64,000 nucleotides of DNA. Source: Escherichia coli. GTDB lineage: Bacteria > Pseudomonadota > Gammaproteobacteria > Enterobacterales > Enterobacteriaceae. A program made the translations under genes and the position numbers. A model generated the notes under the pieces. That model ran no database searches. It had not been told where the DNA came from and was given only the letters and a program-made list of their open reading frames with translations. Positions 7,440-57,448 of the stretch are shown here, one piece after another (within the stretch, counting starts at the first letter, position 1; each line of letters starts with the position of its first letter). Location of the stretch: the NCBI RefSeq assembly GCF_030013205.1, contig NZ_CP122648.1; one strand, given 5' to 3'.

Positions 7440-7522
7440 AACGTTTCTTGCTCCCCCTGATGATTTACTTATTTTTCAACGAATAAGCCAAAACAGGGGG
7501 AACAAATTAACACAAATTATAA

Positions 7523-36087: not shown

Positions 36088-36221
36088 GAAAGGCTCTCCA
36101 GGTTACAGGCTTTTCCTGCCCGATGCTAAAACGGACAACAGTACCAGGTTACCCCAGTACTGTTGCTGTATGGATTAACAGGAGTGTAATCAAAATACGC
36201 CGATTTTGCACCTGTTCCGTG

Positions 36222-36716: not shown

Positions 36717-37142
36717 TATTATTGTCTCTCTGTATTCCTTCCCTACTCCTGTCTGACCCTGAAACATCACTGTTCAGAGTCGCTACCCGTCACGATAGAC
36801 CGAAATCATGAAGATTCACGGCGCGCAATGCCTGGGTCTACGGTGAGAAGACCGTTGCCTTGTGGCAGCTATCGACATCACGAATGGCGTCTGTCCACGC
36901 CATACGTAGATTTCACTAGCACGGTAAACATGGTATTTACATGCATGGTTATGCGCATATAAGAATACTGTTTTTTTCTTCCTCGAATGTTTTCGCAAAA
37001 CACCAGGGGATTGTCAAAGCAAAACATCGATTTTTAGTACAACATGCCAGATATTCATTACCAGGGGCGTTTATTCATCATTTAATCGGCTTATAAAGCG
37101 GGAAATTTAAGTAGCAGAGGTGATAATGACGGGAGAATTTGA

Positions 37143-38225
<1,083 letters not shown>

Positions 38226-38252
38226 TTTTACAAATCAGTAACAAAAGTAAAG

Positions 38253-38291
38253 AAGGCGACACCATGCGACTATGGGTCGCCTTTATTTTTT
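38253..38291 (+). terminator. rho-independent terminator after trxB
   Basis: aggcgac...gtcgcct hairpin followed by ttattttttcc. Confidence 0.5.
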
Positions 38292-38347
38292 CCTCGTTGT
38301 AACATTGCTCTGCAAATAATTCTGATAACTCACCTGCTAAGCGTGCA

Positions 38348-40114: not shown

Positions 40115-41836
40115 ATGCGCGCTTTGCTACCCTATCTGGCACTGTATAAACGTCATAAATGGATGTTAAGTCTTGGTATTGTGCTGGCAATTGTCACGCT
40201 GCTCGCCAGTATCGGTCTGTTGACACTTTCCGGCTGGTTCCTCTCGGCCTCAGCGGTAGCGGGGGTTGCCGGACTGTACAGCTTCAACTATATGCTACCC
40301 GCTGCGGGCGTGCGTGGTGCAGCAATCACCCGTACTGCCGGGCGCTATTTTGAACGTCTGGTAAGTCACGACGCGACTTTCCGCGTGTTGCAGCATCTGC
40401 GCATTTATACCTTCAGCAAATTGCTGCCCCTCTCCCCTGCAGGACTGGCGCGCTATCGTCAGGGCGAATTGCTCAACCGCGTGGTGGCGGATGTTGATAC
40501 GCTCGATCATCTTTACCTGCGCGTTATCTCGCCGCTGGTGGGCGCTTTTGTGGTGATTATGGTGGTGACAATCGGGTTAAGTTTCCTTGATTTCACCCTC
40601 GCCTTTACGCTGGGCGGCATTATGTTACTGACGCTTTTCCTGATGCCACCACTGTTTTATCGTGCGGGGAAAAGCACCGGGCAAAATCTGACTCATCTTC
40701 GCGGGCAGTATCGCCAACAACTGACGGCCTGGCTGCAAGGGCAAGCTGAGCTGACCATTTTTGGTGCCAGCGATCGTTATCGCACGCAGTTAGAGAATAC
40801 CGAAATTCAGTGGCTGGAAGCGCAACGTCGTCAATCTGAACTCACCGCATTATCGCAAGCGATAATGCTGCTCATTGGCGCGTTAGCGGTGATCCTGATG
40901 CTGTGGATGGCGTCTGGCGGCGTTGGCGGCAATGCTCAACCCGGCGCGTTAATTGCCCTGTTTGTCTTCTGCGCGTTAGCCGCGTTTGAAGCACTGGCAC
41001 CAGTAACGGGTGCATTTCAGCATCTGGGGCAAGTCATTGCCTCTGCCGTACGGATCACTGACTTAACGGTTCAAAAACCGGAAGTCACCTTCCCTGATAC
41101 CCAAACTCGTGTTGCCGATCGCGTTTCGCTGACGTTACGGGATGTTCAATTCACTTATCCGGAGCAATCCCAACAGGCACTTAAAGGGATTTCTCTTCAG
41201 GTAAACGCCGGGGAACATATAGCGATTCTCGGGCGAACCGGATGCGGCAAATCAACACTGTTACAACTGCTGACCCGCGCATGGGACCCGCAACAAGGCA
41301 AGATTTTGCTTAACGATAGCCCCATAGCCAGCCTGAATGAAGCGGCTCTACGACAGACCATCAGCGTTGTTCCTCAGCGAGTGCATCTGTTTAGCGCCAC
41401 GCTGCGTGATAATCTGTTACTCGCCTCACCTGGCAGTAGTGATGAGGCTCTGGCGGAGATCTTGCGTCGCGTTGGTCTGGAGAAGCTGCTCGAGGATGCA
41501 GGTCTCAACAGTTGGTTGGGTGAAGGCGGACGCCAGCTCTCCGGTGGTGAACTGCGCCGTCTGGCTATCGCCCGTGCGCTGTTACATGATGCGCCGCTGG
41601 TATTGCTGGATGAACCTACAGAAGGCTTAGATGCCACAACCGAAAGTCAGATCCTTGAATTGCTTGCAGAAATGATGCGTGAGAAAACGGTGTTAATGGT
41701 CACCCATCGACTTCGCGGACTCTCTCGTTTCCAACAAATAATAGTGATGGACAACGGGCAAATTATTGAGCAAGGTACTCACGCAGAACTGCTTGCCAGA
41801 CAGGGGCGTTATTACCAGTTCAAGCAGGGTTTGTAA
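40115..41836 (+). CDS. cydC: ABC transporter CydC
   Basis: 573 aa, start abuts the cydD stop, Walker A GRTGCGKST. Confidence 0.95.
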   Translation: MRALLPYLALYKRHKWMLSLGIVLAIVTLLASIGLLTLSGWFLSASAVAGVAGLYSFNYMLPAAGVRGAAITRTAGRYFERLVSHDATFRVLQHLRIYTFSKLLPLSPAGLARYRQGELLNRVVADVDTLDHLYLRVISPLVGAFVVIMVVTIGLSFLDFTLAFTLGGIMLLTLFLMPPLFYRAGKSTGQNLTHLRGQYRQQLTAWLQGQAELTIFGASDRYRTQLENTEIQWLEAQRRQSELTALSQAIMLLIGALAVILMLWMASGGVGGNAQPGALIALFVFCALAAFEALAPVTGAFQHLGQVIASAVRITDLTVQKPEVTFPDTQTRVADRVSLTLRDVQFTYPEQSQQALKGISLQVNAGEHIAILGRTGCGKSTLLQLLTRAWDPQQGKILLNDSPIASLNEAALRQTISVVPQRVHLFSATLRDNLLLASPGSSDEALAEILRRVGLEKLLEDAGLNSWLGEGGRQLSGGELRRLAIARALLHDAPLVLLDEPTEGLDATTESQILELLAEMMREKTVLMVTHRLRGLSRFQQIIVMDNGQIIEQGTHAELLARQGRYYQFKQGL

Positions 41837-41877
41837 GCTATTATTGAACGATCCGACTAGCGTGGAGTTTTGCGGTC

Positions 41878-42582
41878 ATGCGCCTGGTTCAGCTTTCTCG
41901 CCATTCAATAGCCTTCCCTTCCCCGGAAGGCGCATTACGTGAGCCTAACGGCCTGCTGGCACTGGGGGGCGATCTTAGCCCTGCGCGCCTGTTAATGGCT
42001 TACCAGCGTGGTATTTTTCCGTGGTTTTCTCCAGGTGACCCCATCCTCTGGTGGTCGCCCGATCCTCGCGCGGTGCTTTGGCCTGAATCACTGCATATCA
42101 GCCGTAGTATGAAGCGATTTCATAAACGCTCGCCCTATCGTGTCACGATGAATTACGCTTTTGGTCAGGTCATTGAAGGCTGTGCCAGCGATCGCGAAGA
42201 AGGAACCTGGATCACGCGTGGCGTGGTCGAAGCCTACCATCGCCTTCACGAACTCGGTCATGCCCACTCTATTGAAGTCTGGCGTGAAGATGAGCTTGTC
42301 GGCGGTATGTACGGCGTGGCCCAGGGAACGCTATTTTGTGGCGAGTCCATGTTCAGCCGGATGGAAAATGCGTCTAAAACGGCGCTTCTGGTATTCTGTG
42401 AGGAATTTATTGGTCATGGCGGTAAACTTATCGACTGCCAGGTCCTTAACGATCACACAGCGTCGCTTGGTGCCTGCGAAATTCCCCGCCGGGATTACCT
42501 CAATTATCTCAATCAAATGCGCCTCGGACGATTGCCGAATAATTTCTGGGTACCACGGTGCTTGTTTTCACCACAAGAATGA
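41878..42582 (+). CDS. aat: leucyl/phenylalanyl-tRNA--protein transferase
   Basis: 234-aa ORF; synteny. Confidence 0.92.
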
Positions 42583-42863
42583 ATGTTTTCGGCACATTTC
42601 TCCCCAGAGTGTTATAATTGCGGTCGCAGAGTTGGTTACGCTCATTACCCCGCTGCCGATAAGGAATTTTTCGCGTCAGGTAACGCCCATCGTTTATCTC
42701 ACCGCTCCCTTATACGTTGCGCTTTTGGTGCGGCTTAGCCGTGTGTTTTCGGAGTAATGTGCCGAACCTGTTTGTTGCGATTTAGCGCGCAAATCTTTAC
42801 TTATTTACAGAACTTCGGCATTATCTTGCCGGTTCAAATTACGGTAGTGATACCCCAGAGGAT

Positions 42864-43085
<222 letters not shown>

Positions 43086-43266
43086 TTGTTTTACCGCCTG
43101 ATGGGCGAAGAGAAAGAACGAGTAAAAGGTCGGTTTAACCGGCCTTTTTATTTTGTGATATGTATGAAGTACTTTGGAAGTATAAGTCCATAACTTGTCT
43201 CGATGTAGATATACTGCACAACTTGTTTACAGTATGAGCAAACAATAATTATCATTAAAATTCTTC

Positions 43267-43295
43267 TTGACCGTTTTACTCCAACTCCCTATAGT
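43267..43295 (+). promoter_or_regulatory. sigma70-like promoter (TTGACC-17-TATAGT) upstream of tRNA-Ser
   Basis: Near-consensus -35 and -10 with 17-bp spacer about 40 nt upstream of the tRNA 5' end. Confidence 0.4.
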
Positions 43296-43338
43296 AGCGC
43301 CCCGTTGCCACCCATGAGGTTTGGTAGCAAAACAATTT

Positions 43339-43426
43339 GGTGAGGTGTCCGAGTGGCTGAAGGAGCACGCCTGGAAAGTGTGTATACGGCAACGTATCGG
43401 GGGTTCGAATCCCCCCCTCACCGCCA
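43339..43426 (+). tRNA. serW: tRNA-Ser (anticodon GGA)
   Basis: 88-nt GGTGAGGTGTCCGAGTGG...TTCGAATCCCCCCCTCACCGCCA with long variable arm and GGA in the anticodon loop. Confidence 0.93.
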
Positions 43427-43472
43427 TATTCAAAGAAGAGCTCGTACGAAAGTAGGGGCTTTTTTTTCGCAT
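43408..43472. repeat. direct repeat copy 1 (tRNA-Ser 3' end plus terminator)
   Basis: aatccccccctcaccgccatattcaaagaagagctcgtacgaaagtaggggcttttttttcgcat. Confidence 0.7.
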
Positions 43473-43587
43473 ATTGCACACACCGGGGGGATGAGAAGCC
43501 CCGACCGGGGTTCGACAACTGGCGCAGCCAGTTGGACAGACCACGAACACAGTGAGTGGGCTGCCCGCAGGGCGAGCGAAGCGAGTC

Positions 43588-43651
43588 AATCCCCCCCTCA
43601 CCGCCATATTTAAAGAAAAACTCGTACGAAAGTACGAGTTTTTTTTCGCAT
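43588..43651. repeat. direct repeat copy 2 (duplicated tRNA-Ser 3' end plus terminator)
   Basis: aatccccccctcaccgccatatttaaagaaaaactcgtacgaaagtacgagttttttttcgcat, near-identical to copy 1. Confidence 0.7.
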
Positions 43652-43889
43652 TTTATCTGCCTGTACGGCAGTGAACTCAAATACTACACGTTTAGTCCGT
43701 TATTAATAAAGCAAAACCATCTCATTTTCCTGCTACCACCCTTTTTTATCCTTACCTTCCCGCAGCACTAATTATCAACAACTTACCATCATCATCAAAA
43801 AAAGGGTCTGAACCTCCTCCACCCCATAAACAAAAAGTCCGTAACCTCTTTCGAGATTACGGACTTCACCAACCTACCTGACAATTAGA

Positions 43890-46166
43890 TTAATGCGCTG
43901 CTTCCGCCTTGTGCTTTTGTGCACTCTGGAATCCGTAAGTCAGCTCATTTTTCTCTTTATCCAGCGCGACGGTGACCTGACCGCCGTCCACCAGCGAACC
44001 AAACAACAGTTCGTTGGCGAGCGGTTTTTTCAGGTTGTCCTGGATGACACGCGCCATCGGACGTGCGCCCATTGCCCGGTCGTAACCTTTCTCGGCTAGC
44101 CAGTTACGCGCTTCCTGGCTCACTTCCAGAGAAACACCTTTCTGATCCAACTGAACCTGCAACTCGACGATGAATTTATCCACTACCTGATGGATCACGT
44201 CGGTTGACAGATGATCGAACCAGATAATGTTGTCGAGACGGTTACGAAACTCCGGCGTAAAGATCTTCTTGATCTCTTCCATCGCATCGGTGCTGTTGTC
44301 CTGGTGGATAAGACCAATCGATTTACGCTCAGTTTCTCGTACCCCAGCGTTGGTGGTCATCACCAATACCACGTTACGGAAGTCCGCTTTGCGTCCGTTG
44401 TTATCGGTCAGCGTACCGTTGTCCATCACCTGCAACAGAATATTGAACACGTCCGGGTGCGCTTTCTCGATTTCGTCCAGCAGCAGCACCGCATGTGGAT
44501 GCTTGATGACCGCATCAGTCAGCAAACCGCCCTGATCAAAACCAACGTATCCCGGAGGCGCACCAATCAGACGGCTGACGGTATGGCGTTCCATATACTC
44601 GGACATATCAAAGCGCAGAAGCTCAATGCCCAAAGCTTTCGAAAGCTGTAGCGTCACCTCTGTTTTCCCGACCCCGGTAGGGCCGGCAAACAGGAACGAA
44701 CCGACCGGTTTATGTTCGTGACCTAAACCTGCACGCGCCATCTTAATGGCTTCAGTCAGCGCCTCGATGGCTTTATCCTGACCGAAGACCAGCATTTTCA
44801 GGCGATCGCCGAGGTTTTTCAGGGTATCGCGGTCACTCTGAGAAACACTCTTCTCTGGAATGCGCGCAATACGGGCCACCACGGACTCAATATCCGCCAC
44901 ATTAACGGTTTTCTTGCGTTTGCTTACCGGCATCAGGCGTGCGCGAGCGCCCGCTTCGTCGATAACGTCAATGGCTTTATCCGGCAGATGACGATCGTTA
45001 ATGTATTTCACCGCCAGCTCTACCGCTGCACGCACCGCTTTTGCGGTATAACGCACGTCGTGGTGCGCTTCATACTTCGGTTTCAGGCCATTGATGATTT
45101 GAACAGTTTCTTCGATCGACGGTTCAGTAATATCAATTTTCTGGAAGCGACGCGCCAGAGCACGGTCTTTCTCGAAAATGTTGCTGAACTCCTGATAGGT
45201 TGTCGAACCAATTACGCGAATTTTACCGCTGGAGAGCAACGGTTTGATTAGGTTAGCCGCATCGACCTGACCACCAGACGCTGCACCCGCACCGATAATG
45301 GTGTGGATCTCATCAATAAACAGGATGCTGTTAGTGTCCTGCTCCAGCTGCTTGAGCAACGCTTTAAAACGTTTTTCAAAGTCGCCGCGATATTTTGTGC
45401 CCGCTAACAGAGAACCGATATCGAGAGAGTAAATCGTACAGTCAGCCATCACTTCCGGCACATCGCCCTGAACAATTCGCCAGGCAAGACCTTCTGCAAT
45501 CGCGGTTTTACCGACACCAGATTCCCCCACCAGCAGCGGGTTGTTTTTACGGCGACGGCAGAGAACCTGAATAGCACGCTCCAGCTCCTTCTCACGACCA
45601 ATCAGTGGGTCGATTCCGCCCACGCGCGCAAGCTGATTCAGGTTCGTCGTGAAATTCTCCATACGTTCCTCCCCACCAGCTTGTTCTTCGCTGTTTGGCT
45701 GGCTGCCAGGATCAGAAGACTGTGTCGGCTCGTCTTTACGCGTGCCATGAGAGATAAAGTTCACCACATCGAGACGGCTGACTTCATGTTTACGCAACAG
45801 ATATGCCGCCTGCGACTCCTGTTCGCTAAAGATAGCGACCAGAACGTTTGCACCGGTAACCTCATTGCGACCGGAGGACTGGACATGGAAGACCGCACGT
45901 TGCAGTACACGCTGAAAACTCAGCGTCGGCTGTGTGTCGCGCTCCTCTTCACTGGCAGGCAGAACAGGTGTGGTTTGTTCAATAAAGGCTTCCAGTTCCT
46001 GACGGAGCGCAACCAAATCCACAGAACACGCTTCCAGCGCCTCCCGGGCAGATGGGTTACTGAGCAGCGCCAGTAACAAGTGCTCGACGGTCATAAACTC
46101 ATGACGGTGCTCGCGCGCTCTGGCGAAAGCCATATTTAAACTGAGTTCCAGTTCTTGATTGAGCAT
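43890..46166 (-). CDS. clpA: ATP-dependent Clp protease ATP-binding subunit ClpA
   Basis: ATG at 46166 ([19 protein letters not shown]...), 758 aa, two AAA+ modules. Confidence 0.95.
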
Positions 46167-46690: not shown

Positions 46691-46715
46691 ATTAACTACA
46701 CCATTAACTACACCG
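46691..46715. repeat. island-end repeat attaactacaccattaactacaccg (tandem 12-mers)
   Basis: Near-identical 25-mer at 57068..57092; both followed by CGAACAA-type motifs. Confidence 0.6.
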
Positions 46716-47303
46716 CTTCACGAACAATATCGAACAACCGCGAACAAAGATCAACACGCTTTAATCATTATCATTTTCCGGCTATCCGTCATGAAGCTGG
46801 TGGATGATCTGCGTGGTGATTTCCACCATTCAGAGCAGGGGCGGTCATCATGACCATGCCATAACAAAAACCCCATATTCGTGGTTTTTCTGTGTCGGGG
46901 CTATTCTGCTGTTGCCGTGCTGGTGGATATTCTCCGGTATGCGGCTCCCCATATCGGCATCAGGCCCACCAGCGTGAAGCGTTTTTCATTTTTCGCGGGT
47001 ATAAAAAATCGATGGGGCGGGCAGTCCTGAAGACGTCAGGGTACGGAGATTTGACCCGCCCCTCCCTGTGCATGAGCACAATAAGTAACCGAAGGCGGAA
47101 TTCCGCCCTCGGTACTTACATATGAGAAACGATATTTCTTCCACCGATACCCTTTATTTGGGTATTGCGAGTAAGCCCCAAAATCTGGGTGTTACTCTTA
47201 CTACCCAAACTACGGGTAGTTTCCGTAGTTTCATGGTCGAGTTGCAAATCTGCAACTCACCCACCAGCCAACGCAATTTTGCGTTATCGGGAATATCAGC
47301 AAG

Positions 47304-47591
47304 TTACCGCCGCAGTCGTTCCGGCTTCTTCCACTGGTAAGTATTTTTCGCGCTCTCCCTCCGTTGTTGAGAACGGCGACGGTATGCCAGCAACTCAAGG
47401 ACTCTGGTTCGTATGTTGCGCATATCCACGCCGTTAAGCTCAATACCATCACGGCGCATCACCTCAGCAACAACACGCGCGTAATTTTCAGCGGTGACTG
47501 TATCCGGCTGCGCGGCCTGTTCGTCAGCCAACTGGCTGATTCCACCAGCACAGCGGATTAATCGCAGTATTTCAGATTCGGTCATTATCAT
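47304..47591 (-). CDS. hypothetical protein downstream of terS-like gene
   Basis: 95-aa ORF, ATG overlaps the upstream stop. Confidence 0.5.
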   Translation of the reverse strand: MIMTESEILRLIRCAGGISQLADEQAAQPDTVTAENYARVVAEVMRRDGIELNGVDMRNIRTRVLELLAYRRRSQQRRESAKNTYQWKKPERLRR

Positions 47592-48073
47592 GCCTGTTTT
47601 GCGACCTCATTCACTACGTCATTTTTTACCATCCGGCTGATAATCTGATTACACAAATCGTCAATAATTGACTGCACTCTGTTTACTGCCATCGGTTTAA
47701 GCCCGGCATCACGTGCCAGAATATTGGGGAGTTTTGCCAGTTCCTCGCTTACGATTTCCCCCCATATAGCCATCTCTTTTCGCACATCATCGGCGGGTAT
47801 GAGTTGCGCCGTTTCCTGTTCGAACTTGAGGCGTTCACGTTCGGACTGATACCAGGCCTTACGGTCTTGTGGCTCCATTTCTTCCAGTGATGCCGGAACG
47901 GGAAGATCAAGAAAACAGGTCAGAATGTCAGTCACCCGATAGAGTTTCAGCTTGTCATGCCCTCCGGCTGGCTGGATGTTTTTCAGCCTTGCCGCCGCAG
48001 TCTGACGACATATTCCCGCTATCGCCGCCAGTTGATTAATGTTCAGCATCAGATTTTTCAGTTCTCGATCCAT
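47588..48073 (-). CDS. Nu1-like small terminase subunit / packaging-redirection (Rpp-like) protein
   Basis: ATG at 48073 (MDRELKNLMLNINQLAAIAGICRQTAAARL...), N-terminal wHTH plus coiled coil resembling lambda Nu1; the track start at 48160 is TTG. Confidence 0.55.
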   Translation of the reverse strand: MDRELKNLMLNINQLAAIAGICRQTAAARLKNIQPAGGHDKLKLYRVTDILTCFLDLPVPASLEEMEPQDRKAWYQSERERLKFEQETAQLIPADDVRKEMAIWGEIVSEELAKLPNILARDAGLKPMAVNRVQSIIDDLCNQIISRMVKNDVVNEVAKQA

Positions 48074-48226
48074 ACCCGCTCCAGAATGTTTTAAACATGC
48101 ATCTTGCGAACAACTTTCAGAAGAGGTCAAAAAATGCGCTATATGTTGAGCATAAAACAAGCAAAATTAACATGCCAAAAATAAAAATACTTAAAATTCA
48201 ATACAATATGAAGATGATGATGACGA

Positions 48227-48322
48227 ATGAAAATGCAAAAACTAGCCTTTTTCCGCGCCGCTCCCGCCCCGTGGCAGACCACTCCACCGGGAGGACCCGT
48301 AAAAAAGGCGGCTGTCGCCGCC
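48227..48322. repeat. conserved intergenic element A (about 72 nt shared with element B, then a GC hairpin)
   Basis: About 85 percent identical to 50761..50832; hairpin ggcggctgtcgccgcc at 48307..48322. Confidence 0.6.
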
Positions 48323-48329
48323 CTTGTTG

Positions 48330-50243
48330 TCATGCTCCACTCGATTTCAGTAATCCGCGATAATCGAGGGCCGCGACACCTGCATCTATGCGCACTTTCC
48401 AGGCGACACCATCAACAGTAAAGCCCACCTGCTCCTCAAGATATGGCGTATCCATACCATCAAGATAAGCGACTTCTATTGTGTCCATCCCCTTAGCTGC
48501 GGCTACATACCATTCCTTGCTATTGGCCTTATCAAGACGTGGCTCAACAATTACTTCTGCCATATCTTTCACCACGTTAATGATGCCGGGGTTCTGATTG
48601 ATAGTGCTCTCATCACCAACCGGAAAGACTGATGACGATGACAGAATGGCGCGACGCGCGGCAGATTCCAGCGCGGCAGGGACCAGAACAAAAGCAGGGG
48701 TAATATTCAGTGAGTCGCCGTTAGCATCCTCCTGGAGGCGCATCAGCTTACGGGCTTCATCAAGCCCCACCATGTCCATATCCTTCGCAATAAGATTTTT
48801 ATGATCGGCATGGAATAACGCTTTACCATCCGTAAATTTGCCGTTGCTGGTTAACAGAAGATAAACCAGATTACCTACTGTTCTGGCGGCCGCACGCCCC
48901 ATCGCCATGGGGATTGTAGTTAACTGGGTCAGGTCATCGTTGATAATGGCCTGACGGGTAACAGAAAAAATATTACCGTATGTGGCCAGCGCAATAGGTA
49001 CACCTTTATCGCTGGTGGTGATGTATTTATATTCCGCACCTTCCGGTACTTTATCCAGCTTTGAAAAACCATTCAGACCAACGCGCTTTGCTTCATGAAA
49101 GTTTGAAAGCGATCCGGTACGCGTCCATTTCTGGAACGTTTCGCCGCTGTCCTGCCAGCCTTTCAGCACTGATTTTTCAGCACCACCAGCCAGAATATGA
49201 GAAAAATCGCTGCTGCTGTGTGTGAAAGCTGCATTAACGACCTGCGAGCGATTTAAAAAACTGCCAACACTGATACCACGATCAGTTAGTGATGCCTGGG
49301 CCATTTCAAAAAGGCTCATCATCGCGTAAGGATTTCCCCGCTCTGGGCGTTCATACCCAAGACGAGAATAAAGCCCCTGACGAATTGCATCGCCTGTTAT
49401 GTTCCCGTTACCGGCATAAATATGAGTCGGGATATTTTTATTGGATGGCGTGGACTCGCGCCCCAGCTCGTTCAACAACTTTTCACGGGCCATCTCCGGT
49501 GTACATGATGCATCCTCCAGGCACGCCATTTTGATCCCGTCGTAACGACTGCCGAACAGGCTAAACACTTCACTTATTCCGTTGATGCGCTTCTGTTCAT
49601 TACCAGCAATATTGGCTGCTCCCTGTGGCGGGGTAATCATTCCTTTAATGGTTTCAGGCATGTGTGAAAAATCTCCTGTGCGTTTCGATTCAATTCGCGC
49701 CATTGCTGTGACAGATGGCAACAATTCATCAGCAAAACCGTGCTTAAGGCATTCTTTCCCGTCCATCCAGGTTTCATCTTCCAGCATGGCGGTAATTTCC
49801 TGTGCTGATTTGCCCGTTTTTCTGGCATAAGCAGGGACTAACACGGTTTCCACCTTATCCAGCAAATCAGCATAATCACGCATATCACCAGCATTTCCGC
49901 CAGAGATACCCCACGGCTTATGTATCATCATCATGGCGTTTTCCGGCATCACAACACGATCGCCAGCCATTGCGACAACCGAAGCCATTGAAGCCGCAAC
50001 ACCATCGATATAAACCGTAATTTCTGCCGGATGATTCCGTAACAGGTTATAGATGGCGATGCCTTCAAACACGTCACCACCTGGCGAATGGATCCGCAGG
50101 TCGATATGTGAGACATCGCCCAGGGCTTTCAGGTCTTCCGCAAACTGCTTCGCGGTAATACCGAAGCCGCCAATTTCTTCATAGATGGATATTTCTGCCG
50201 CTCCGCGAACACCCAGCGCCTTAATGGTGTACCAGTGATTCAT
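48330..50243 (-). CDS. prohead protease (ClpP/S49-like) fused to HK97-fold major capsid protein
   Basis: Single 637-aa ORF; N-terminal serine-protease-like region (HSPGGDVFEGIAIYN...), C-terminal roughly 400 aa capsid-like. Confidence 0.8.
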   Translation of the reverse strand: MNHWYTIKALGVRGAAEISIYEEIGGFGITAKQFAEDLKALGDVSHIDLRIHSPGGDVFEGIAIYNLLRNHPAEITVYIDGVAASMASVVAMAGDRVVMPENAMMMIHKPWGISGGNAGDMRDYADLLDKVETVLVPAYARKTGKSAQEITAMLEDETWMDGKECLKHGFADELLPSVTAMARIESKRTGDFSHMPETIKGMITPPQGAANIAGNEQKRINGISEVFSLFGSRYDGIKMACLEDASCTPEMAREKLLNELGRESTPSNKNIPTHIYAGNGNITGDAIRQGLYSRLGYERPERGNPYAMMSLFEMAQASLTDRGISVGSFLNRSQVVNAAFTHSSSDFSHILAGGAEKSVLKGWQDSGETFQKWTRTGSLSNFHEAKRVGLNGFSKLDKVPEGAEYKYITTSDKGVPIALATYGNIFSVTRQAIINDDLTQLTTIPMAMGRAAARTVGNLVYLLLTSNGKFTDGKALFHADHKNLIAKDMDMVGLDEARKLMRLQEDANGDSLNITPAFVLVPAALESAARRAILSSSSVFPVGDESTINQNPGIINVVKDMAEVIVEPRLDKANSKEWYVAAAKGMDTIEVAYLDGMDTPYLEEQVGFTVDGVAWKVRIDAGVAALDYRGLLKSSGA

Positions 50244-50449
50244 TGCTCCCCCCCAGATGCAAAACCATTCTTATCAAGCCACGCGTTAACCGCGTGTCTG
50301 ACAATCTGCGCCGCACCTGGTAATGGTTGGTCAGGATGATGATTTATGTGGTCGATCCTGTACTGCTTAAGGCGCATAACGGTCTGCGCATCCAGATGAA
50401 CGGAACCACCTTTTACCTCGCCTGTGTTCAGGTCGTTAATACAATTCAC
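50240..50449 (-). CDS. hypothetical small protein (non-ATG start)
   Basis: 69-aa ORF with GTG start and AGAGGA RBS; stop overlaps the capsid start. Confidence 0.4.
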   Translation of the reverse strand: MNCINDLNTGEVKGGSVHLDAQTVMRLKQYRIDHINHHPDQPLPGAAQIVRHAVNAWLDKNGFASGGEQ

Positions 50450-50760
50450 AGTAACTTCCTCTTACTGACTAAACTGCGCGCATTATTGATCGATAAAAGT
50501 GGTAGATAAACATATTTCTATCATAAAAATAGATTAATCAGATTCAGACACAAAAAAGCCGGAGAGAATCCGGCATAAATATCCCGCCATCTGAACACGT
50601 TTTGCACAGGCAACTCCATCTGGCAGGTGAAAAACAAATTTATTTATATATTTCAATTAATTGCAAACTGGTCTAATGACAGGGAGAAAAAAATATTGTA
50701 CAGGTGAAAACAGAAATAACTTTTAATTATCAATAAATTACTACACATGCTGCCGCCGCC

Positions 50761-50858
50761 ATGAAAATGCAAAAACCAGCCTTTTTCCGCGACGCTCCCG
50801 CCCCGTGGCAGGTCACTACACCGGGAGGACCCATAAAAAAGCCGGATTGCTCCGGCTT
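50761..50858. repeat. conserved intergenic element B (copy of element A core, different terminal hairpin)
   Basis: atgaaaatgcaaaaaccagcctttttccgcg...ccgggaggaccc then gccggattgctccggc hairpin with T-run on the minus strand. Confidence 0.6.
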
Positions 50859-50872
50859 CTGTTACTCGTTGC

Positions 50873-51295
50873 TTAAAACGGTATGTTATCCCCGTACGGA
50901 TCATCATTTCCCGCCTGTTGTTTTGCTCTGCTCAGTGCATCAGTAGCCTGCCCCTGTTGGCCTTTTTTGCCGCCCGGTCGCGCCGTTCTCGCACTGATTA
51001 CGCTGTCTGCGATAACCTGCCAGCCCTGCCGCGTCTCCCCGTTCTGTCCGGTCCACTGGCTCACCTGCATGTTACCCGCCACGCTCAGGAGTTCACCCTT
51101 GCGGTGCTTTGCCAGTGCTTCGGCCTGTCTGCCAAACGCCAGGACGGATAACCACATCGTCGCCGTTCCGTCATCTGCCTGGCTGCACGGAAGTGGGACC
51201 GCCATACTCGCCATCGTCATTTGTGTACCCTTGCTGGTGGTCTTTAACTGCGGGTCAGCCACCAGCCGCCCGTAAGCCGCTATCTGTGCTGTCAT
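50873..51295 (-). CDS. single-stranded DNA-binding protein (SSB-like)
   Basis: 140 aa, OB-fold-like N-terminus and acidic C-terminal tail DDPYGDNIPF like the SSB DDDIPF tail. Confidence 0.65.
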   Translation of the reverse strand: MTAQIAAYGRLVADPQLKTTSKGTQMTMASMAVPLPCSQADDGTATMWLSVLAFGRQAEALAKHRKGELLSVAGNMQVSQWTGQNGETRQGWQVIADSVISARTARPGGKKGQQGQATDALSRAKQQAGNDDPYGDNIPF

Positions 51296-51537
51296 GCTGT
51301 CTGCTCTCCGGTTTTAACGTTGATGGTTGTCACCTGTTCCGCTTCGGCAATCTCCCGTTCTGTCAGCGTGGCAAAGTTTGCAGCTGCCGTTGTCATGAAT
51401 GAGCTAATCAGTTCGGGATGTGCTTTCGCATATCCTTCCCCGGCGTTGCGGTCGATGATTTTTATCGACACCCTTAACCAGTGTTCCGTCAAATCAAGGG
51501 CGTGCGATTGTGATTTTTTTGTGTGCTTCGCTGTCAT
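51292..51537 (-). CDS. hypothetical protein
   Basis: 81-aa ORF overlapping the SSB start. Confidence 0.45.
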   Translation of the reverse strand: MTAKHTKKSQSHALDLTEHWLRVSIKIIDRNAGEGYAKAHPELISSFMTTAAANFATLTEREIAEAEQVTTINVKTGEQTA

Positions 51538-51583
51538 AGGCTTTATCTCACAGCAGTAAATTAAAATTTTTGCGTTTTAACCC

Positions 51584-51812
51584 TTCACCTGTTCACCTTT
51601 TGATATTTTATCTTTTAATTCATAATGTTAAGGGGTGAACAGTTTCACAAAAACTATTCACCAACTGTTCACCACTGTTCACCCTTGAAGCTCAATAAAC
51701 AATCAAAAAGGTGAACAGTGAATAGTTTGGTGAACAGTTCATAAATAACTGTTCACCCTATAACATACTGATACAAAAGATATTTATGACAGGGTGAACA
51801 GTGGTGAACAGT
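51584..51812. repeat. iteron array: at least 9 copies of TGTTCACC/GGTGAACA in both orientations (P4 ori/crr-like)
   Basis: Octamers counted at 51590, 51634, 51666, 51676, 51710, 51729, 51750, 51793, 51803, with TATTCACC variants; immediately downstream of the alpha-like gene. Confidence 0.7.
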
Positions 51813-51824
51813 TATTCCATAAGT

Positions 51825-53642
51825 TTAATTTTTGCTATCGTCATTAGTGACCGATACACATGATGGCATCCAGTCTTCTGATTCCTCCGTCAGTGTCACG
51901 TTTGAACGCAAACCGTGCTTCGTTTTCCGTTTCATATACTCCCTGCCATATTCCGCCATTGCCCCCGGCATATCTTTACCGAAGCGCGTCAGTGTTACAG
52001 GTTTACCAAACCCATGTGCCCTCATATAAGCCAGATAGGCATGATAGAGATACCTGCGTGGGCTGAATGGCACAATTTCAGCATTACCCACTAACAGGCC
52101 ATCACACATTACCGACGCCATGAGATAGCCGCAGAAGTCCACCAGCGAATCCCCCTCTCGCTTTATCGCCAGTGCTTCTTCAGATTTCTGCTGCTCATAT
52201 AACAGGCGTCTGGCTTCGTCCTGGTCAGCAAACCGTGTAAGCAGATGGCGAATCACTACCGCCAGCTCACCTTCTATTTTTTCCGCCAGCATTGGATCGC
52301 GTTCGTTCTCCGGTACAACTTCCGAAAAATTGAATATCACCCGACGACGTGAGATCCCCCCGCTGCGGTCACTGAATGACATGGCGTTATTGTTAACCGC
52401 CAGCACTACTGCCGGAATACGCGTTGAGTAGGGGGCTTTGTGTTTCGGGTCAATTGCCACCTTGTCACCGCCTGTAATGGCCTTAATTCCTGCCCCATCA
52501 CCAGCGTAGCGGGTCATATCCGGCATGATAATCAGCGAAAAGCCAACCACTAACGCGCGTTCCCTTGCATCTTCCAGCGCCTTCATGCTTGCCGATACTG
52601 TGTTGGCCTTACCCGCCAGCATGGTGCAAATCTCCGCCATCACGCTTTTACCACTTCCCCCTGGACCTGTTACCTCAATGAATAACTGCCAGTCGTACCG
52701 GTTCGCCAGCACCATGAATAATGCAGCCAGTACGCGATCCGCCTTGCGGTCATTCTCAGCCACCGAACGGCGTAACCACTTCCAGAAATTCGGCGCATGT
52801 GTTGCCAGCGTTTCCCCCTCTGCTGGTGGGCTGAAAGGTAATTCACTGGCAATTAACAACCAGTCGTTTTTGTTATGCTCCCGAAAATTACCTGTTCTGG
52901 TATCAAATACCCCGTTACTGAATCCAATCAGGTTACGGGCTGTATTCCCCATAACAGGCAAACTTAACTTCATGGTATCGACCGCCGATTTAATGGCGTT
53001 CTGCGAATAGCTGATCTCCGCATCAATGAAAATCTGTGCCATAGCTCGCTGTAATTCTTTATCCTGTACTGGCTCCCATACAACGCCGTTGTAATGGTGA
53101 ACAGTGTCAGAGTCAGCATGAATCGCCAGTTCACCGCCATAATGTGCCAGGAGAACTTCGCCGCGTTGACTTGCTCCCATCTGGTTAAGCGCCAGTGATG
53201 AAGCGTTATCGTCTTTTACCCGCTCTTTTTTCTTTACAGGCAGTTCAACTACCTTTTTCTTTTCCGCCTGCTCTGCCCGTTCACGTTCCAGATATTCGCG
53301 CCAGTTCTCCCGTTTCTGGCTGTGCATTCCTTCAGGGTAATAATCAGCATCCCTGACACCTGCCGCTGCCAGTTTCTGCCCGATGGTATTAACAAGCCCC
53401 GGACGCAATAACCCCGCCTGGTAGAGACGCACGCGATAGCGTCCGTCCGGTACGATTTGCAGGTTGTCCAGTTCGGCAAGTTGTTGCTCTCCAAGCCAGA
53501 CAGGTGGCACGTTATCGCCAGCCAGTCGCCCGTCCTGTTCCTGCCACTGCTTCGCATGTGCCCACGCATCACTACCCGCAAAAATGATGACTTCCGTCAT
53601 TTTGTCACGCGGCTGGTGTTTTAAATTTGGCGCTTTTTTCAT
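51825..53642 (-). CDS. P4 alpha-like replication protein (D5_N / SF3 helicase, primase-helicase family)
   Basis: Walker A GPGGSGKS; ATG at 53642 with GGAGAG RBS; the track start at 53657 is GTG. Confidence 0.8.
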   Translation of the reverse strand: MKKAPNLKHQPRDKMTEVIIFAGSDAWAHAKQWQEQDGRLAGDNVPPVWLGEQQLAELDNLQIVPDGRYRVRLYQAGLLRPGLVNTIGQKLAAAGVRDADYYPEGMHSQKRENWREYLERERAEQAEKKKVVELPVKKKERVKDDNASSLALNQMGASQRGEVLLAHYGGELAIHADSDTVHHYNGVVWEPVQDKELQRAMAQIFIDAEISYSQNAIKSAVDTMKLSLPVMGNTARNLIGFSNGVFDTRTGNFREHNKNDWLLIASELPFSPPAEGETLATHAPNFWKWLRRSVAENDRKADRVLAALFMVLANRYDWQLFIEVTGPGGSGKSVMAEICTMLAGKANTVSASMKALEDARERALVVGFSLIIMPDMTRYAGDGAGIKAITGGDKVAIDPKHKAPYSTRIPAVVLAVNNNAMSFSDRSGGISRRRVIFNFSEVVPENERDPMLAEKIEGELAVVIRHLLTRFADQDEARRLLYEQQKSEEALAIKREGDSLVDFCGYLMASVMCDGLLVGNAEIVPFSPRRYLYHAYLAYMRAHGFGKPVTLTRFGKDMPGAMAEYGREYMKRKTKHGLRSNVTLTEESEDWMPSCVSVTNDDSKN

Positions 53643-53938
53643 TTCGGCTCTCTCCACGCGGCAATCATGTTTTTCAGTTCCTGCAGTTTTTTATCCACAT
53701 CCACACGTGACACATGGTTATTTCTGGAAGTCGGGATTTCCCGCCGGAATCTGCTAATAAAGATCTCCACGTTCAGCGAACTATGAAATGAATAGCCATC
53801 ACGAATAAAATACACACGGTCAAACATCAGTTCTTTTACCGTTACTCTGTTACCGTTCTTATCCAGATAAATAGCGCCGGGGATAATTTTGGGGTGTGCA
53901 TAACCGCTGGCAGTCAAGCCAGATAAATATGTTCTCAT
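53639..53938 (-). CDS. hypothetical protein
   Basis: 99-aa ORF, overlapping start/stop with the alpha-like gene. Confidence 0.45.
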   Translation of the reverse strand: MRTYLSGLTASGYAHPKIIPGAIYLDKNGNRVTVKELMFDRVYFIRDGYSFHSSLNVEIFISRFRREIPTSRNNHVSRVDVDKKLQELKNMIAAWREPK

Positions 53939-53944
53939 GATTAT

Positions 53945-54265
53945 TTATCCCCGATTTGAATCAGTATTCGCTTTCTTTATGGCATTTAATGCATCTGTGG
54001 CATTTTCAATGGTGCACCGTAACGAAATATCAAACTGCCCAAGCATTGCCAGTAACAAACCGATATTACCCATATCAATGCGCATGGCCTTTTCGTCATA
54101 GTCCTCATTTTCTGACGCATGCCACATCAGGCTACCAATTGACGCAACAGCCATTGATATATTGTCAGTAGCCCCATCAGCAGCGGAATAAACCTTTTTA
54201 GCAATATCATGCTCACAGTTAAAATGCGGATTAATCAGGTACTGGTAATTTGACATATCAGGCAT
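53945..54265 (-). CDS. hypothetical protein
   Basis: 106-aa ORF. Confidence 0.45.
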   Translation of the reverse strand: MPDMSNYQYLINPHFNCEHDIAKKVYSAADGATDNISMAVASIGSLMWHASENEDYDEKAMRIDMGNIGLLLAMLGQFDISLRCTIENATDALNAIKKANTDSNRG

Positions 54266-54461
54266 GGCACACCCCCTGACGAATACGGGCGGCGAATACC
54301 ATCACGTAGCCAGCCGGGGATTGCTGGCGTGCTTCCTGTTCACTGGTGGCCTCAATGGTAATCACGCGCGGTTGTGCCGTGCTCAGGGCGATAAAACGCC
54401 AGATGTATTTATTCAGGTTGTACGAGTCCCGCCCTTGCGGGTGTCTGGTATAATTTCTCAT
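54258..54461 (-). CDS. hypothetical small protein (real part of a spurious 302-aa track ORF)
   Basis: Internal ATG at 54461 with GAGG RBS (MRNYTRHPQGRDSYNLNKYIW...). Confidence 0.3.
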   Translation of the reverse strand: MRNYTRHPQGRDSYNLNKYIWRFIALSTAQPRVITIEATSEQEARQQSPAGYVMVFAARIRQGVCHA

Positions 54462-54540
54462 AGCTGCCTCGATACTGTTGCTATCGTTGGTGGTTAGACG
54501 CCCTGCATGTGTGCCACCACTGCGGGGCGTTGTTGCTTGG

Positions 54541-54630
54541 TGCATCGCACCATTCGTTTTTAACCTATCAGCAAGTGAATCGCACTTCAAGCCTTTCTCT
54601 GAAATTTTTTTTGTGTATACTGAATCGCAC
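54541..54630. promoter_or_regulatory. three direct repeats TG(C/A)ATCGCAC plus a TATACT -10-like box upstream of the RHH gene
   Basis: Copies at 54541, 54576 and 54621; TATACT at 54616..54621. Confidence 0.4.
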
Positions 54631-54651
54631 CAACTTAGAGAGGATTCAGTA

Positions 54652-54831
54652 ATGGCAACAGGTTCAACAAATAATAAGTCGCAACAGTTAAATGCCAGAT
54701 TCCCGCATGATGTTGTTGCAGACTTAGAAAAAAATTTAGATGAAGGTGAAAGCAAGGCGCAATTTATAGTTACTGCCGTTAAAGGCGAGATCAAACGCCG
54801 CCAGCGCCGCAAGGCCAAAGAGCAGGAGTAA
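54652..54831 (+). CDS. ribbon-helix-helix (Arc/CopG-like) DNA-binding protein
   Basis: 59 aa; N-terminal beta-strand-like LNARFPHDVVADL; GAGAGG RBS. Confidence 0.55.
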   Translation: MATGSTNNKSQQLNARFPHDVVADLEKNLDEGESKAQFIVTAVKGEIKRRQRRKAKEQE

Positions 54832-54873
54832 CCATCACCAGCGCCGTGGTGTGAGTAACTACGGCGCATTGCT

Positions 54874-55062
54874 ATGCAGGACAACACAATGACCGATAAA
54901 GAATTGACCAAAACATTATCACCGGCACGGAAAAGACGGCGCAGAAAGATAGAGCATGAATCAGAAAGATTCGCGCCATGTGCTTTTGCTCTTGAGAAAT
55001 TCCTTAAAGAGCACAGGAAAAAGCTCTCGTTGCAAACCTTGGAACGAACCAAATCTGACTGA
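54874..55062 (+). CDS. hypothetical small basic protein
   Basis: 62-aa ORF followed by hairpin ggcgaccgcccccggtcgcc with T-run. Confidence 0.3.
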   Translation: MQDNTMTDKELTKTLSPARKRRRRKIEHESERFAPCAFALEKFLKEHRKKLSLQTLERTKSD

Positions 55063-55176
55063 TCACATTGCCCACCAGCCGCAAATGTGGCATTGTTGGT
55101 GATGCGTTCAAGTTTAGTGTGTATCCATTGGCGACCGCCCCCGGTCGCCTTTGTTTTATATGTCATATGCTCCCCT

Positions 55177-55386
55177 TTACGCTGCCTTGCCTGAATTAAT
55201 GCGATCCCGGCTTTTAACCCATTCCATAACCTCGGACAGCAGCCAACCTACAGAACGACCGCCCAGATTACGGCGTGACGGGAAATTCCCTTTTTTCTCC
55301 AGTTCATAGCGTGTAGTGCGACACACTCCAGTTAACTTACGACATTCATCCTCACGGATTACGCGATCTTCATTTATTTCACGCAT
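55177..55386 (-). CDS. alpA: AlpA-family transcriptional regulator
   Basis: 69 aa, MREINEDRVIREDECRKLTGVCRTTRYELEKKGNFP... typical AlpA/Xis HTH. Confidence 0.8.
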   Translation of the reverse strand: MREINEDRVIREDECRKLTGVCRTTRYELEKKGNFPSRRNLGGRSVGWLLSEVMEWVKSRDRINSGKAA

Positions 55387-55805
55387 ACAAAAACCTACAT
55401 AAAAAATTACGTATATAAACTTTTCTCTTAGCTGTAGATATATGAGATCGGATATTACTTAGATTCTTTTTTCACCTCTTAAATTAAAAACACAACCTTG
55501 CTAAAGGCTTTGTTCGCTAAGGTTCGTAGAAGCTCGTTAGTGTTTAAAATCGTGTCACGAGTTTTTAAGCGATGCAACAAAAAATGTCGTTACTTGGCAT
55601 TACGCTTGAATTATCTCATTAAAAACAAATAGATAAACCATCAAGTGTTGGAACAATCAAGAAACAGAGAATAAAAGTTCAGAAGAAGACATTCCAATTT
55701 TTTGATGGTTGACATATATAAAGCGAAGATATTTGCAGATATTTTCCGATATTCTACGATTTATTCACGGCTGTAATCTCTTAAAGAAAAAACAGCCGTA
55801 ATTTG

Positions 55806-57053
55806 TCAAGAATTTTGGGGGTAAATTCGCGGGGTCATAACAACGATTTTTTCATCATTGTTCTGGAGAAGCTCGAGACGGTCTACCCATAGATTAAGAG
55901 CATCACGTTTTGCATCAAGATAACGGGAGTGGTTATAGACTCGTTGCATCCCCGGCATCTGGTGGGCGGTAAGCTGCTCGACAATATGCGGATCCACGCC
56001 TAAATCGTTCAGCATGGTTGTAAATGTGTGCCGGATGTCATGCAACGACCAGGGGGCTTGATTAATGCGTCTGTGTGCCGTTCTTCCGTACTCTGCTACG
56101 GATGATTGCCCTTTCAGTTCTCCAAGCAATAAGCCCGTGTGCCTGTTCTTCTCCACCAGCTTCATGACAAACGGCAAGATCGCTTCCGGTATTGGCCTGA
56201 ATATTGCTACCTTCGTTTTGCTGTGTTCTTTCGGCACAGTCCAGAGCATTTCTTTAAAATCCCATTCCTGAACCTCGGAGCGTCTTAGCTCAGTGGTACG
56301 GCATCCAAAGACAATCAGAAGGCGAATTAAGGCGCTGTAGTACGGCGGGAAAATTTTTTCATCCAGTGCGCGGAGTAGCTCGCCAAGCTCCTTGTTTGTT
56401 AGCACTCGCTCGCTTATTTCTGCTTTTTTTCCCACATCACCTACGACCATATCATCAAGAACGTTACTGACGGCGTAGCGACGTTTACGGCAGTACTTAA
56501 GCGCCTGCTTGCATACCTGCAACAAAAAGCCGGCTGATACCGGATTACGCTTAGCAAGCTGGTCAAAACAGGCCAGCCAGTGGCGTAACTCGCATTTATC
56601 CAGCGGCATAGCACCAATCTGGCTGATTATGTGCTTATTGATCCGGCTTTTCAGTGATTCGTGGTCAGTGCGCTTTTCCTTCGCGTATGACTCAAGCCAG
56701 TAAGTGATCGCGTCCTTAACCGTTACAGGTGCTAACGCTTCCTGCACTGTGTGATTAAGCTCATGGCGTGGATTTTTCCCCTCCGCCAGCCAGGCGCGAC
56801 ACTGTGCCGCTTTTTCTCTGGCTGCTTTCAGGCTCAGATCGGGATAGTTGCCCAGTCTCAGGCGTTCCGGTGATACCTGCCTGCCAGTTCCGGCCCTGTA
56901 AGTGAAATACCAGGTTAACAGGCCATTGGTTGAATGCCTTACGCTAAGGTTGCCACCATCATTAAAAAAGGTGTTTTTTGTGGTTGGTGATCCGCTTAAT
57001 TTTCGTAAAAGAGTGTCGCTAAGTCTATGAATTGCCCTGCTCATGTTTCGCAT
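55806..57053 (-). CDS. int: tyrosine integrase (P4-type)
   Basis: 415 aa with catalytic-region motifs (HDIRHTFTT, YNHSRY); at the island end next to cspD. Confidence 0.9.
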   Translation of the reverse strand: MRNMSRAIHRLSDTLLRKLSGSPTTKNTFFNDGGNLSVRHSTNGLLTWYFTYRAGTGRQVSPERLRLGNYPDLSLKAAREKAAQCRAWLAEGKNPRHELNHTVQEALAPVTVKDAITYWLESYAKEKRTDHESLKSRINKHIISQIGAMPLDKCELRHWLACFDQLAKRNPVSAGFLLQVCKQALKYCRKRRYAVSNVLDDMVVGDVGKKAEISERVLTNKELGELLRALDEKIFPPYYSALIRLLIVFGCRTTELRRSEVQEWDFKEMLWTVPKEHSKTKVAIFRPIPEAILPFVMKLVEKNRHTGLLLGELKGQSSVAEYGRTAHRRINQAPWSLHDIRHTFTTMLNDLGVDPHIVEQLTAHQMPGMQRVYNHSRYLDAKRDALNLWVDRLELLQNNDEKIVVMTPRIYPQNS

Positions 57054-57067
57054 TTCCGGTCATCAAA

Positions 57068-57092
57068 ATTAACTACACCATTGACTACACCG
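57068..57092. repeat. island-end repeat attaactacaccattgactacaccg
   Basis: 24 of 25 identical to 46691..46715; 15 bp beyond the integrase start. Confidence 0.6.
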
Positions 57093-57448
57093 TGCATCGT
57101 ACAAGGGCAAACAGCGACGAACAAGGGCGAACAAGAAAAACGAAATTTTCCTTTATAATCATAGCAATAAATGAGATAGATACACCACGACGAACACCCG
57201 CGAACACTAACTGATAAATAACTATCATCTATCGTTGGCATCAGCGACATCTGTCACATTCCTGTCAATAGCGTTAACTGCTTCAAATTTTTGATTCATA
57301 CCTGCCCCCTGGCCCCTGTCAAATGCTTGACGGCTCGCCCTAATTCTCTAAATTGTATTTCTAGAGTTGACGAGGTTTTGAACAGCCCCCTCTCTGACCC
57401 CGGTTTATTCCATCTTACTTGTATAAGATTTGCGAAGGATGTCGAAGC

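Follow-up and report, generated by a model that had tools for sequence, protein, structure and literature searches.

Cohesive-end (cos) sites decide which DNA the terminase of a helper phage packages, and hence which phages spread a satellite and its cargo. Phage-inducible chromosomal islands (PICIs) in Escherichia coli use cos sites, and EcCICFT073 has two of them (PMC6092414, PMC6739421). It was reported that EcCICFT073 needs cos1 alone for its transfer and that an Rpp-TerS heterocomplex recognises the cosB of cos1 (PMC6092414, PMC6739421; reviewed in PMC9026076), while no role was given for the second cos in the 2018 and 2019 papers (PMC6092414, PMC6739421). PICIs with two cos sites have been in the published record since 2018. 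Two strategies have been summarised for satellites, namely to carry the helper's own cos and to encode a satellite TerS, the small terminase subunit (PMC6092414). Here we describe two cos-like elements, copy A (cos A) and copy B (cos B), in a stretch of 64,000 nucleotides from the E. coli contig NZ_CP122648.1, which as a whole is called the window below. Judging from their sequences, both elements are very probably lambda-type cos sites, whose shared core would be the cosQ-cosN unit on which terminase acts. With almost the same confidence, they can be explained as the cos pair of a 10.4-kb PICI-type satellite and as the target of a helper terminase. The evidence consists of homology to phage cos regions, colinearity with lambda cos, the ends of deposited phage records, the pairing of cosB types with TerS types, and the recurrence of the layout in other islands.

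The paired cores and their lambda-type anatomy

The two cores were detected by direct reading, by pairwise alignment and by an independent repeat search of the window. The initial annotation of this DNA had pointed out twin elements of about 72 nt, and all three approaches recovered them. The cores lie in direct orientation with a spacing of 2534 bp, and by pairwise alignment they are identical at 66 of 72 positions (92%), which is higher than the ∼85% first given. The repeat search returned a single direct-repeat family (48227-48320 and 50761-50854, spacing 2534). Beyond the cores, the similarity of the copies runs through A6 (T6 on the gene strand), after which two unlike G+C-rich hairpins follow. 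As had been described, each core is situated just downstream of a minus-strand stop codon, the capsid TGA at 48330-48332 for copy A and the TAA at 50873-50875 of the gene for single-stranded DNA-binding protein (SSB) for copy B; a hairpin and T6 lie between stop and core in both. The short plus-strand open reading frames (ORFs) that start in the elements, 48227..48421 and 50761..50946, exist in a mechanical sense, their ATG being the complement of the core-terminal CAT. For the composite motif GGGTCCT-N(15-25)-GGGCGG, the window has exactly two occurrences, where 100 shuffles gave an expectation of 0.00. The parts of the two cores are:

48227..48298, minus strand: cos A core, colinear with lambda cos and homologous to the cos of phages mEp460 and 569R4
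48292-48298, minus strand: cosQ of cos A, GGGTCCT, followed by a 22-nt spacer
48258-48269, minus strand: 12-nt cohesive end of cos A, GGGCGGGAGCGG
48227-48257, minus strand: segment of cos A placed like the lambda I2 region, CGCGGAAAAAGGCTAGTTTTTGCATTTTCAT
50761..50832, minus strand: cos B core, containing cosQ, cosN and the I2-placed segment
50826-50832, minus strand: cosQ of cos B, GGGTCCT
50792-50803, minus strand: 12-nt cohesive end of cos B, GGGCGGGAGCGT
50761-50791, minus strand: segment of cos B placed like the lambda I2 region

In both copies, the cosQ heptamer lies 22 nt from the inferred nick, the corresponding distance in lambda being 23 nt. cosN was recognised by homology, as ACG-GGGCGGGAGCG(G/T)-CGCGG (hyphens bounding the cohesive end) is colinear with lambda. 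Inspection of the fetched ends of the lambda record gave the layout ACGGGTCCTTTCCGGTGATCCGACAGGTTACG, GGGCGGCGACCT and CGCGGGTTTTCGCTATTTATGAAAATTTTCC for the left side, the cohesive end and the right side of lambda cos, and the minus strand of copy A aligned to these as ACGGGTCCTCCCGGTGGAGTGGTCTGCCACG, GGGCGGGAGCGG and CGCGGAAAAAGGCTAGTTTTTGCATTTTCAT, respectively. The records of phages cdtI and Tritos, which were deposited independently, end in ...CTGCCACG and start with GGGCGGGAGCGT, the start base being the equivalent of position 50803. These record ends follow the convention used for lambda cohesive-end records.

Phage homologs of both copies were found by blastn against phage genomes, with matches on the strand opposite to the query. 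They are located between the lysis genes and terS, or at genome or record ends. Among relatives, the most variable part of the core is the 22-nt spacer between cosQ and cosN. A full-text literature search for GGGCGGGAGCG gave, among the matches listed, unrelated topics only. The initial annotation, which had considered a cos site with a second cos-like copy, was right about the kind of element but not about its anatomy: cosN is placed inside the core, at 48258-48269 and 50792-50803. As annotation this is an ordinary finding, in which cos had been guessed correctly and cosN misplaced.

Probable cosB flanks and their TerS partners

The sequences of copies A and B part at about bp +44, counted from the inferred left end. 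In lambda, the R3 site, the key contact of TerS, occupies bp 50-65 (PMC9026076). The regions that follow the cores are:

48074..48226, minus strand: cosB region of cos A, mEp460/569R4 type, bp +44 to +196 from the cohesive end, stopping at the terS ATG
47588..48073, minus strand: island terS homolog, 161 amino acids (aa), DUF1441 / phrog_141 (PHROG terminase small subunit, E 3e-56)
50601..50760, minus strand: cosB region of cos B, cdtI/Tritos/HannyBb type; phage homology stops near 50601
50552..50574, minus strand: intrinsic terminator that immediately follows the relic start of terS and lies upstream of both the 69-aa ORF and the capsid operon

Copy A together with its AT-rich flank (48162-48300) matched lambdoid phages of the mEp460, 569R4 and PhiR40 type at ∼84%. 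The colinearity of cos A with 569R4 and mEp460 extends as far as the ATG of terS, which is at bp 197 here and at bp 191 in lambda; cos A lies 196 nt upstream of the island terS. A promoter scan pointed to a weak sigma-70-like site at 48178-48149, within the cos A cosB; it is a bare consensus match that may drive terS. Proteins were assigned by PHROG, NCBIfam and PDB searches. Over its full length, including the N-terminal helix-turn-helix region, the island TerS shares 65-66% identity with its counterparts in mEp460 and 569R4, and cdtI TerS aligns to it over the C-terminal half only. It had no PDB match and the NCBIfam search was also empty. Because both searches were empty, the island protein is, at the sequence level, not an Rpp like that of EcCICFT073-like PICIs; it is a TerS homolog.

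For copy B with 200 nt of flank (50601-50803), the identity is 94% to bases 1-204 in the records of both cdtI and Tritos, and 92% to an internal site of HannyBb. The cosB of cos B contains a match to the consensus of integration host factor (IHF) at 50728-50740, a candidate site by sequence match, and two direct TTTTCACCTG motifs at 50701-50710 and 50624-50633. A relic of a phage terS start (ATG at 50617-50619) follows cos B, where the homology comprises the ATG and ∼20 nt. The alignment of the copy B cosB covered 12 phages and 13 other islands. cosQ, cosN and the ∼185-bp cosB of cos B were intact in 14 of 14 island copies. In one cos B, that of L096, the cosB has otherwise diverged, yet both TTTTCACCTG motifs are kept. 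Copy B had been suspected of being a pseudo-cos, a description that does not suit an element in which cosQ, cosN and a full phage-type cosB are all kept.

To relate cosB to TerS, IMG/VR was scanned for the cosN 21-mer, which gave 120 stretches, and 135 cos sites of this cosN class were scored. A type-0 cosB (mEp460/569R4) was followed only by TerS of the mEp460 type or the island type (83/83 scorable sites), and a type-1 cosB (cdtI/Tritos/HannyBb) only by cdtI-type TerS (18 sites), with no exceptions where TerS was scorable. The rest of the 135 sites were island cos B copies, islands without terS after the cos, and truncated loci. Because each cosB type goes with its own TerS type without exception, cosB and TerS appear to behave as specificity pairs, like those of lambda and phage 21. 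The position and length of cosB and its co-variation with the TerS type fit a putative TerS-specific region, for which cos B offers an IHF-consensus match and two TTTTCACCTG motifs and cos A no repeated motif. TerL, the large terminase subunit, is 77-88% identical between the mEp460-type and cdtI-type phage groups, and the shared core may be the part that such closely related TerL proteins would use.

Recurrence of the pair, a proposed packaging scheme and rival explanations

Related islands were taken from IMG/VR and genome loci, which are designated by L-numbers (L141 is E. coli EC13). Among 5,426 complete E. coli genomes, 179 contain the 4-kb packaging module at a coverage of at least 80%. 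When 100,044 species genomes were scanned for exact occurrences of the cosN 21-mer, seven stretches were obtained. Two of these are phage or island cos, one on a Citrobacter contig and the other on a contig labelled "Bacillota" with mEp460-type terS and terL; the remaining five matched none of the query proteins from islands and phages and seem to be coincidental. Eleven fetched islands share the order of the window, that is, SSB, type-1 cos, 69-aa ORF, capsid, type-0 cos and terS, with integrases 22-100% and primases 48-100% identical to those of the window. In nine of them the cos sites are ∼2535 bp apart, whereas L096 has a distance of 2523 bp and L116 one of 3319 bp. The last value arises from an insertion of ∼790 bp (L116 8723-9512) between the capsid terminator and cos A. 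The island packaging module is also matched at 100% in EC13.

In L087, L097, L025 and L096, the SSB-cos-capsid-cos-terS module belongs to PICIs that lie inside terL of mEp460-type prophages, in the order helper cos, helper terS, N-terminal half of terL, PICI, C-terminal half of terL. In L089 and L105 the PICI lies inside terL of a cdtI-type prophage, and the capsid cassette of L105 differs. These six loci look like the helper-embedded PICIs already published (PMC10111431). Those embedded in terL of mEp460-type prophages suggest, indirectly, that mEp460-type phages are likely natural helpers.

Several loci depart from the common layout. The block from an 81-aa ORF through SSB and cos B is replaced in L037 and L063, with the capsid gene and cos A kept. 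L069 carries an exact core-to-core deletion (SSB, one cos, terS), equivalent to window positions 51792-50761 joined to 48311-47201. This would be the expected product of recombination between cos cores, or of end joining after packaging had run from cos A to cos B; the polymorphisms of its chimeric cos do not separate terminase-mediated deletion from homologous recombination. In L103 and L104, a lambda-E-like capsid/decoration cassette is located between two direct cos sites, which in L103 are at 1640-1697 and 4062-4133, both on the minus strand. The downstream cos of L103 is a hybrid of a lambda/EcCICFT073-like cosQ and spacer, a cohesive end of the window family and a phage-21-like cosB. L105 has a third capsid variant between direct minus-strand cos sites at ∼673 and 3212, of which the downstream one has a 2-nt deletion in cosN.

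A packaging scheme can be drawn from these data, in which we infer both cleavage and the choice of site from sequence. The shared core would supply what the helper TerL needs, namely cosQ, a cosN whose nicking leaves a 12-nt 5' overhang, and the I2-placed segment. Either the satellite TerS or a helper TerS would bind cosB and recruit the helper TerL, cosN would be nicked, and the DNA would be packaged towards terS. Most likely, cos A with the island TerS would be the main site of packaging initiation. The cosB of cos B would pair with a TerS having an unrelated N-terminal DNA-binding domain, and cos B may allow helpers of the cdtI type to initiate packaging through the TerS that they encode. 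Packaging could be terminated at either site; because its cosQ and cosN are kept, cos B would be usable as a termination site by any terminase of this cosN class. With about four units of 10,377 bp, the packaged length was calculated to be 41.5 kb from A to A, 39.0 kb from A to B and 44.0 kb from B to A. The genomes of the helpers mEp460 and cdtI are 44.5 kb and 47.0 kb, and all three packaged lengths would plausibly fit a full-size head.

We tentatively propose a dual-helper role of the two sites. A further proposal, which is doubtful at present, is that the paired direct cos sites are a selected design, in which the same cosN is joined to two TerS specificities and widens the helper range, and the capsid gene is a cos-bounded cassette that could be removed or exchanged by terminase cutting or by recombination. 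The core-to-core deletion in L069 and the other capsid modules between the cos pairs of L103 and L105 fit such a design. Such a design, if real, would account for the presence of a second cos in PICIs. Should both sites be functional, the island would have a simple route to two helper types, and its capsid cassette could be lost or swapped. The island family offers a natural test case, with near-identical cores (66/72) and TerS-specific flanks from two phage lineages.

Both hairpins next to the cores have the features of intrinsic terminators:

48301..48322, minus strand: intrinsic terminator of the capsid gene, GGCGGC-GACA-GCCGCC and T6; the stem starts 8 nt after the capsid stop, and the hairpin GGCGGCGACAGCCGCC is at 48307-48322
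50835..50857, minus strand: intrinsic terminator of the SSB operon, AGCCGGAGCAATCCGGC and T6; the hairpin at 50841-50857 starts 16 nt after the SSB stop and directly precedes cos B

The hairpin of the SSB terminator also follows the SSB/PerC module in EcCICFT073. The initial annotation had placed the lambda-type cosN in the hairpin of copy A (AGGGCGGCGACAGCCGCC), which would make the 72-nt core an accessory. It is correct that GGGCGGCGAC is literally present there and matches the lambda cohesive end at 10 of 12 bases, and that the hairpin adjoins a probable genuine cos. However, this stretch is part of the capsid terminator, with a 6-bp G+C stem, a 4-nt loop and T6 directly after the stop codon, and its likeness to the lambda end is a by-product of the GGCGGC stem. 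Neither a cosQ nor an ACG half-site lies upstream of the hairpin, where the DNA is capsid coding. The tenth base of the lambda-like stretch is the loop base, which varies among islands (T in eight related ones, giving GGGCGGCGAT). Alignment across related islands, which had been proposed as a check, revealed that the core is kept while the copy A hairpin varies or is swapped for a different terminator, other sequence standing in its place in L069, L103 and L116. Copy B has the shared core with a different hairpin (AGCCGGAGCAATCCGGC versus GGCGGCGACAGCCGCC), as was noted at the outset, and phage records start inside the core, not at the hairpin. The probability that the hairpin is the real cosN is hence close to nil. 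It is also very improbable that the elements give rise to regulatory RNAs, or that they are duplicated modules for late promotion or antitermination which respond to a helper, both of which had been considered in similar form. Such roles would agree with conserved intergenic elements beside terminators and upstream of morphogenesis genes, and with the weak sigma-70-like site in the flank of cos A. Nevertheless, neither copy gave an Rfam match that reached the gathering threshold, and below it only implausible eukaryotic families were matched. Folding of both cores on both strands was no better than that of shuffles (z from -1.35 to +0.24). The phage homologs, lying at genome ends or between lysis genes and terS, are not downstream of Q, and variation is concentrated in the cosQ-cosN spacer, as expected of a cos site.

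A more serious alternative is that only cos A works, cos B being a functionless trace left by recombination with a phage of the cdtI type, comparable to the second cos of EcCICFT073, and persisting because it is young and harmless. Several observations count in its favour and, together with others, against the interpretation of the elements as a working cos pair. The second cos of EcCICFT073 is dispensable for transfer (PMC6092414, PMC6739421). After cos B come only ∼20 nt of the terS of the phage before a terminator is reached. cos B moves together with the SSB block, and it is missing from L037 and L063 though the capsid gene and cos A are kept there, and therefore it is not obligatory. The fetched islands are closely related (capsid and TerS 92-99% identical), and because of this the conservation of cos B could reflect recent acquisition. 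Two direct cos sites should give sub-genomic products without the capsid cassette, which looks costly to the island. For cos A, a search for exact repeats of at least 8 nt found no repeated R-like motif in its cosB. The nick positions were deduced from homology and from the way in which the phage records had been deposited, and the twofold symmetry of cosN (12 of 22 positions) was not above that of composition-matched shuffles (P ∼ 0.2). On the other hand, a mere footprint does not readily account for the intact cosQ, cosN and ∼185-bp cosB in all 14 island copies of cos B, for the two TTTTCACCTG motifs retained by L096 inside an otherwise diverged cosB, or for direct cos pairs that flank the capsid cassette in three cassette variants. 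Moreover, from lambda biology an intact cosQ-cosN should be cut at termination whatever the state of cosB (PMC6739421). We consider it less likely than not that cos B is non-functional, a probability hardly below that of the dual-helper role, and retain the explanation of the two elements as the cos pair of a satellite.

The satellite and its comparison with known systems

The satellite and the segment between its cos sites are delimited as follows:

46691..57082, no strand assigned: PICI-type satellite, with attachment (att) repeats ATTAACTACACCATT at 46691 and 57068 and a unit length of 10,377 bp
48330..50449, minus strand: cassette between the cos sites, consisting of a 69-aa ORF (50240-50449) and the gene for a ClpP-like prohead protease/major capsid fusion (48330-50243)

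The satellite is inserted between clpS and cspD. Its gene order on the minus strand is int, alpA-like, icd-like, DUF4222, primase, iteron region, SSB, cos B, capsid cassette, cos A, terS and a 95-aa ORF. A near-identical region of E. coli KGu016, also between cspD and clpS, is annotated as integrase, helix-turn-helix regulator, Icd-like, DUF4222, primase, hypothetical, SSB, ClpP-like prohead protease/major capsid fusion, DUF1441 and hypothetical. PHROG and NCBIfam agreed on an alpA-like excisionase/regulator, primase, SSB, protease-capsid fusion and terminase small subunit. The island has the layout of a Gram-negative PICI (10-20 kb, att sites, unidirectional gene order) and is syntenic with EcCICFT073. 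The capsid fusion gene was identified as NCBIfam NF045540 (904 bits) and shows 54-65% identity to its counterpart in phages with this cos. The 69-aa ORF was considered as a W-like protein of a helper, encoded between terL and portal, which would have supported the capture of a phage late operon with a deletion; this was rejected, as no similarity was found.

At the boundaries of the satellite, imperfect 66-nt direct repeats (46691-46756 and 57068-57133) with reiterated CGAACAA-like motifs were observed, which probably represent att sites with repeats of the arm type. Inverted repeats rich in GGTGAACAG-type iterons were found at 51609-51826, shortly downstream of the stop codon of the primase gene, and this region is probably the replication origin of the satellite. 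Elsewhere in the window, matches at the Rfam gathering level were obtained for STnc130 (7314-7448), isrK (13751-13825), C4 antisense RNA (13861-13948), a tRNA (43339-43423, tRNA-Ser in relatives) and one RtT repeat (43471-43606). isrK and C4 adjoin, as in prophage immunity regions, but EC13 annotates the stretch as ordinary chromosomal genes (pflA, ycaD). Between tRNA-Ser and clpA, EC13 has a type I-F CRISPR-Cas locus (34718-43677, partly pseudogenised), where the window has only RtT sequence at 43424-43890. EC13 was therefore rejected as a guide to the left part of the window, with which it is not colinear because the CRISPR-Cas insertion lacks a counterpart there.

The closest described system is EcCICFT073. 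The backbone of int, alpA, icd-like, DUF4222, primase, SSB, capsid module and cos is shared with it, as are two lambda-like cosQ-cosN cores, one of them directly upstream of a packaging-specificity gene. The island in the window has a cos pair of the same kind in a different layout, and the habit of carrying two per island was already known. In EcCICFT073 the two are inverted and lie on either side of rpp (plus strand, 17529-17564; minus strand, 18304-18339), whereas those of the window are direct and flank the capsid cassette. EcCICFT073 has no cos between its SSB/PerC block and capsid module, the very place where cos B is found in the window. Its cosN is of the lambda type at both sites (GGGCGGCGACCT), compared with GGGCGGGAGCGG/T in the window island, and its cosB was reported to be unlike that of any helper, whereas both cosB regions of the window island are of phage type. 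Its 144-aa protein matches RppC (PDB 6HLK, 5e-31), and the window island encodes a full TerS homolog instead.

In comparison with lambda cos, the island sites share GGGTCCT, a distance of ∼22-23 nt, ACG-GGGCGG with a 12-nt stagger, and conservation to about bp 43, after which a TerS-specific region follows (PMC9026076). They differ from lambda in 5 of 12 cohesive-end bases and in a cosB that is unrelated to the lambda R sites, and the island TerS, a member of the DUF1441 family, has no match to gpNu1 at the sequence level. Much closer are the phages mEp460 and 569R4 (type 0) and cdtI, Tritos and HannyBb (type 1), whose cores are near-identical to those of the island, with 84% identity for cos A and 94% for cos B through cosB. 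These phages have one cos followed by terS, terL, portal and the protease/capsid fusion; in contrast, the island has both types 2.5 kb apart, the cdtI-type copy being without terS.

Among the satellites of Staphylococcus, SaPIbov5 (SaPI, Staphylococcus aureus pathogenicity island) and its kind use a helper cos, a strategy that resembles cos B, and SaPIbov5 is also similar in having a capsid homolog (Ccm). The pac SaPIs that encode a TerS resemble cos A with terS. These satellites belong to an unrelated host clade and have unrelated sequences, and they differ from the window island in that both strategies are combined in the latter.

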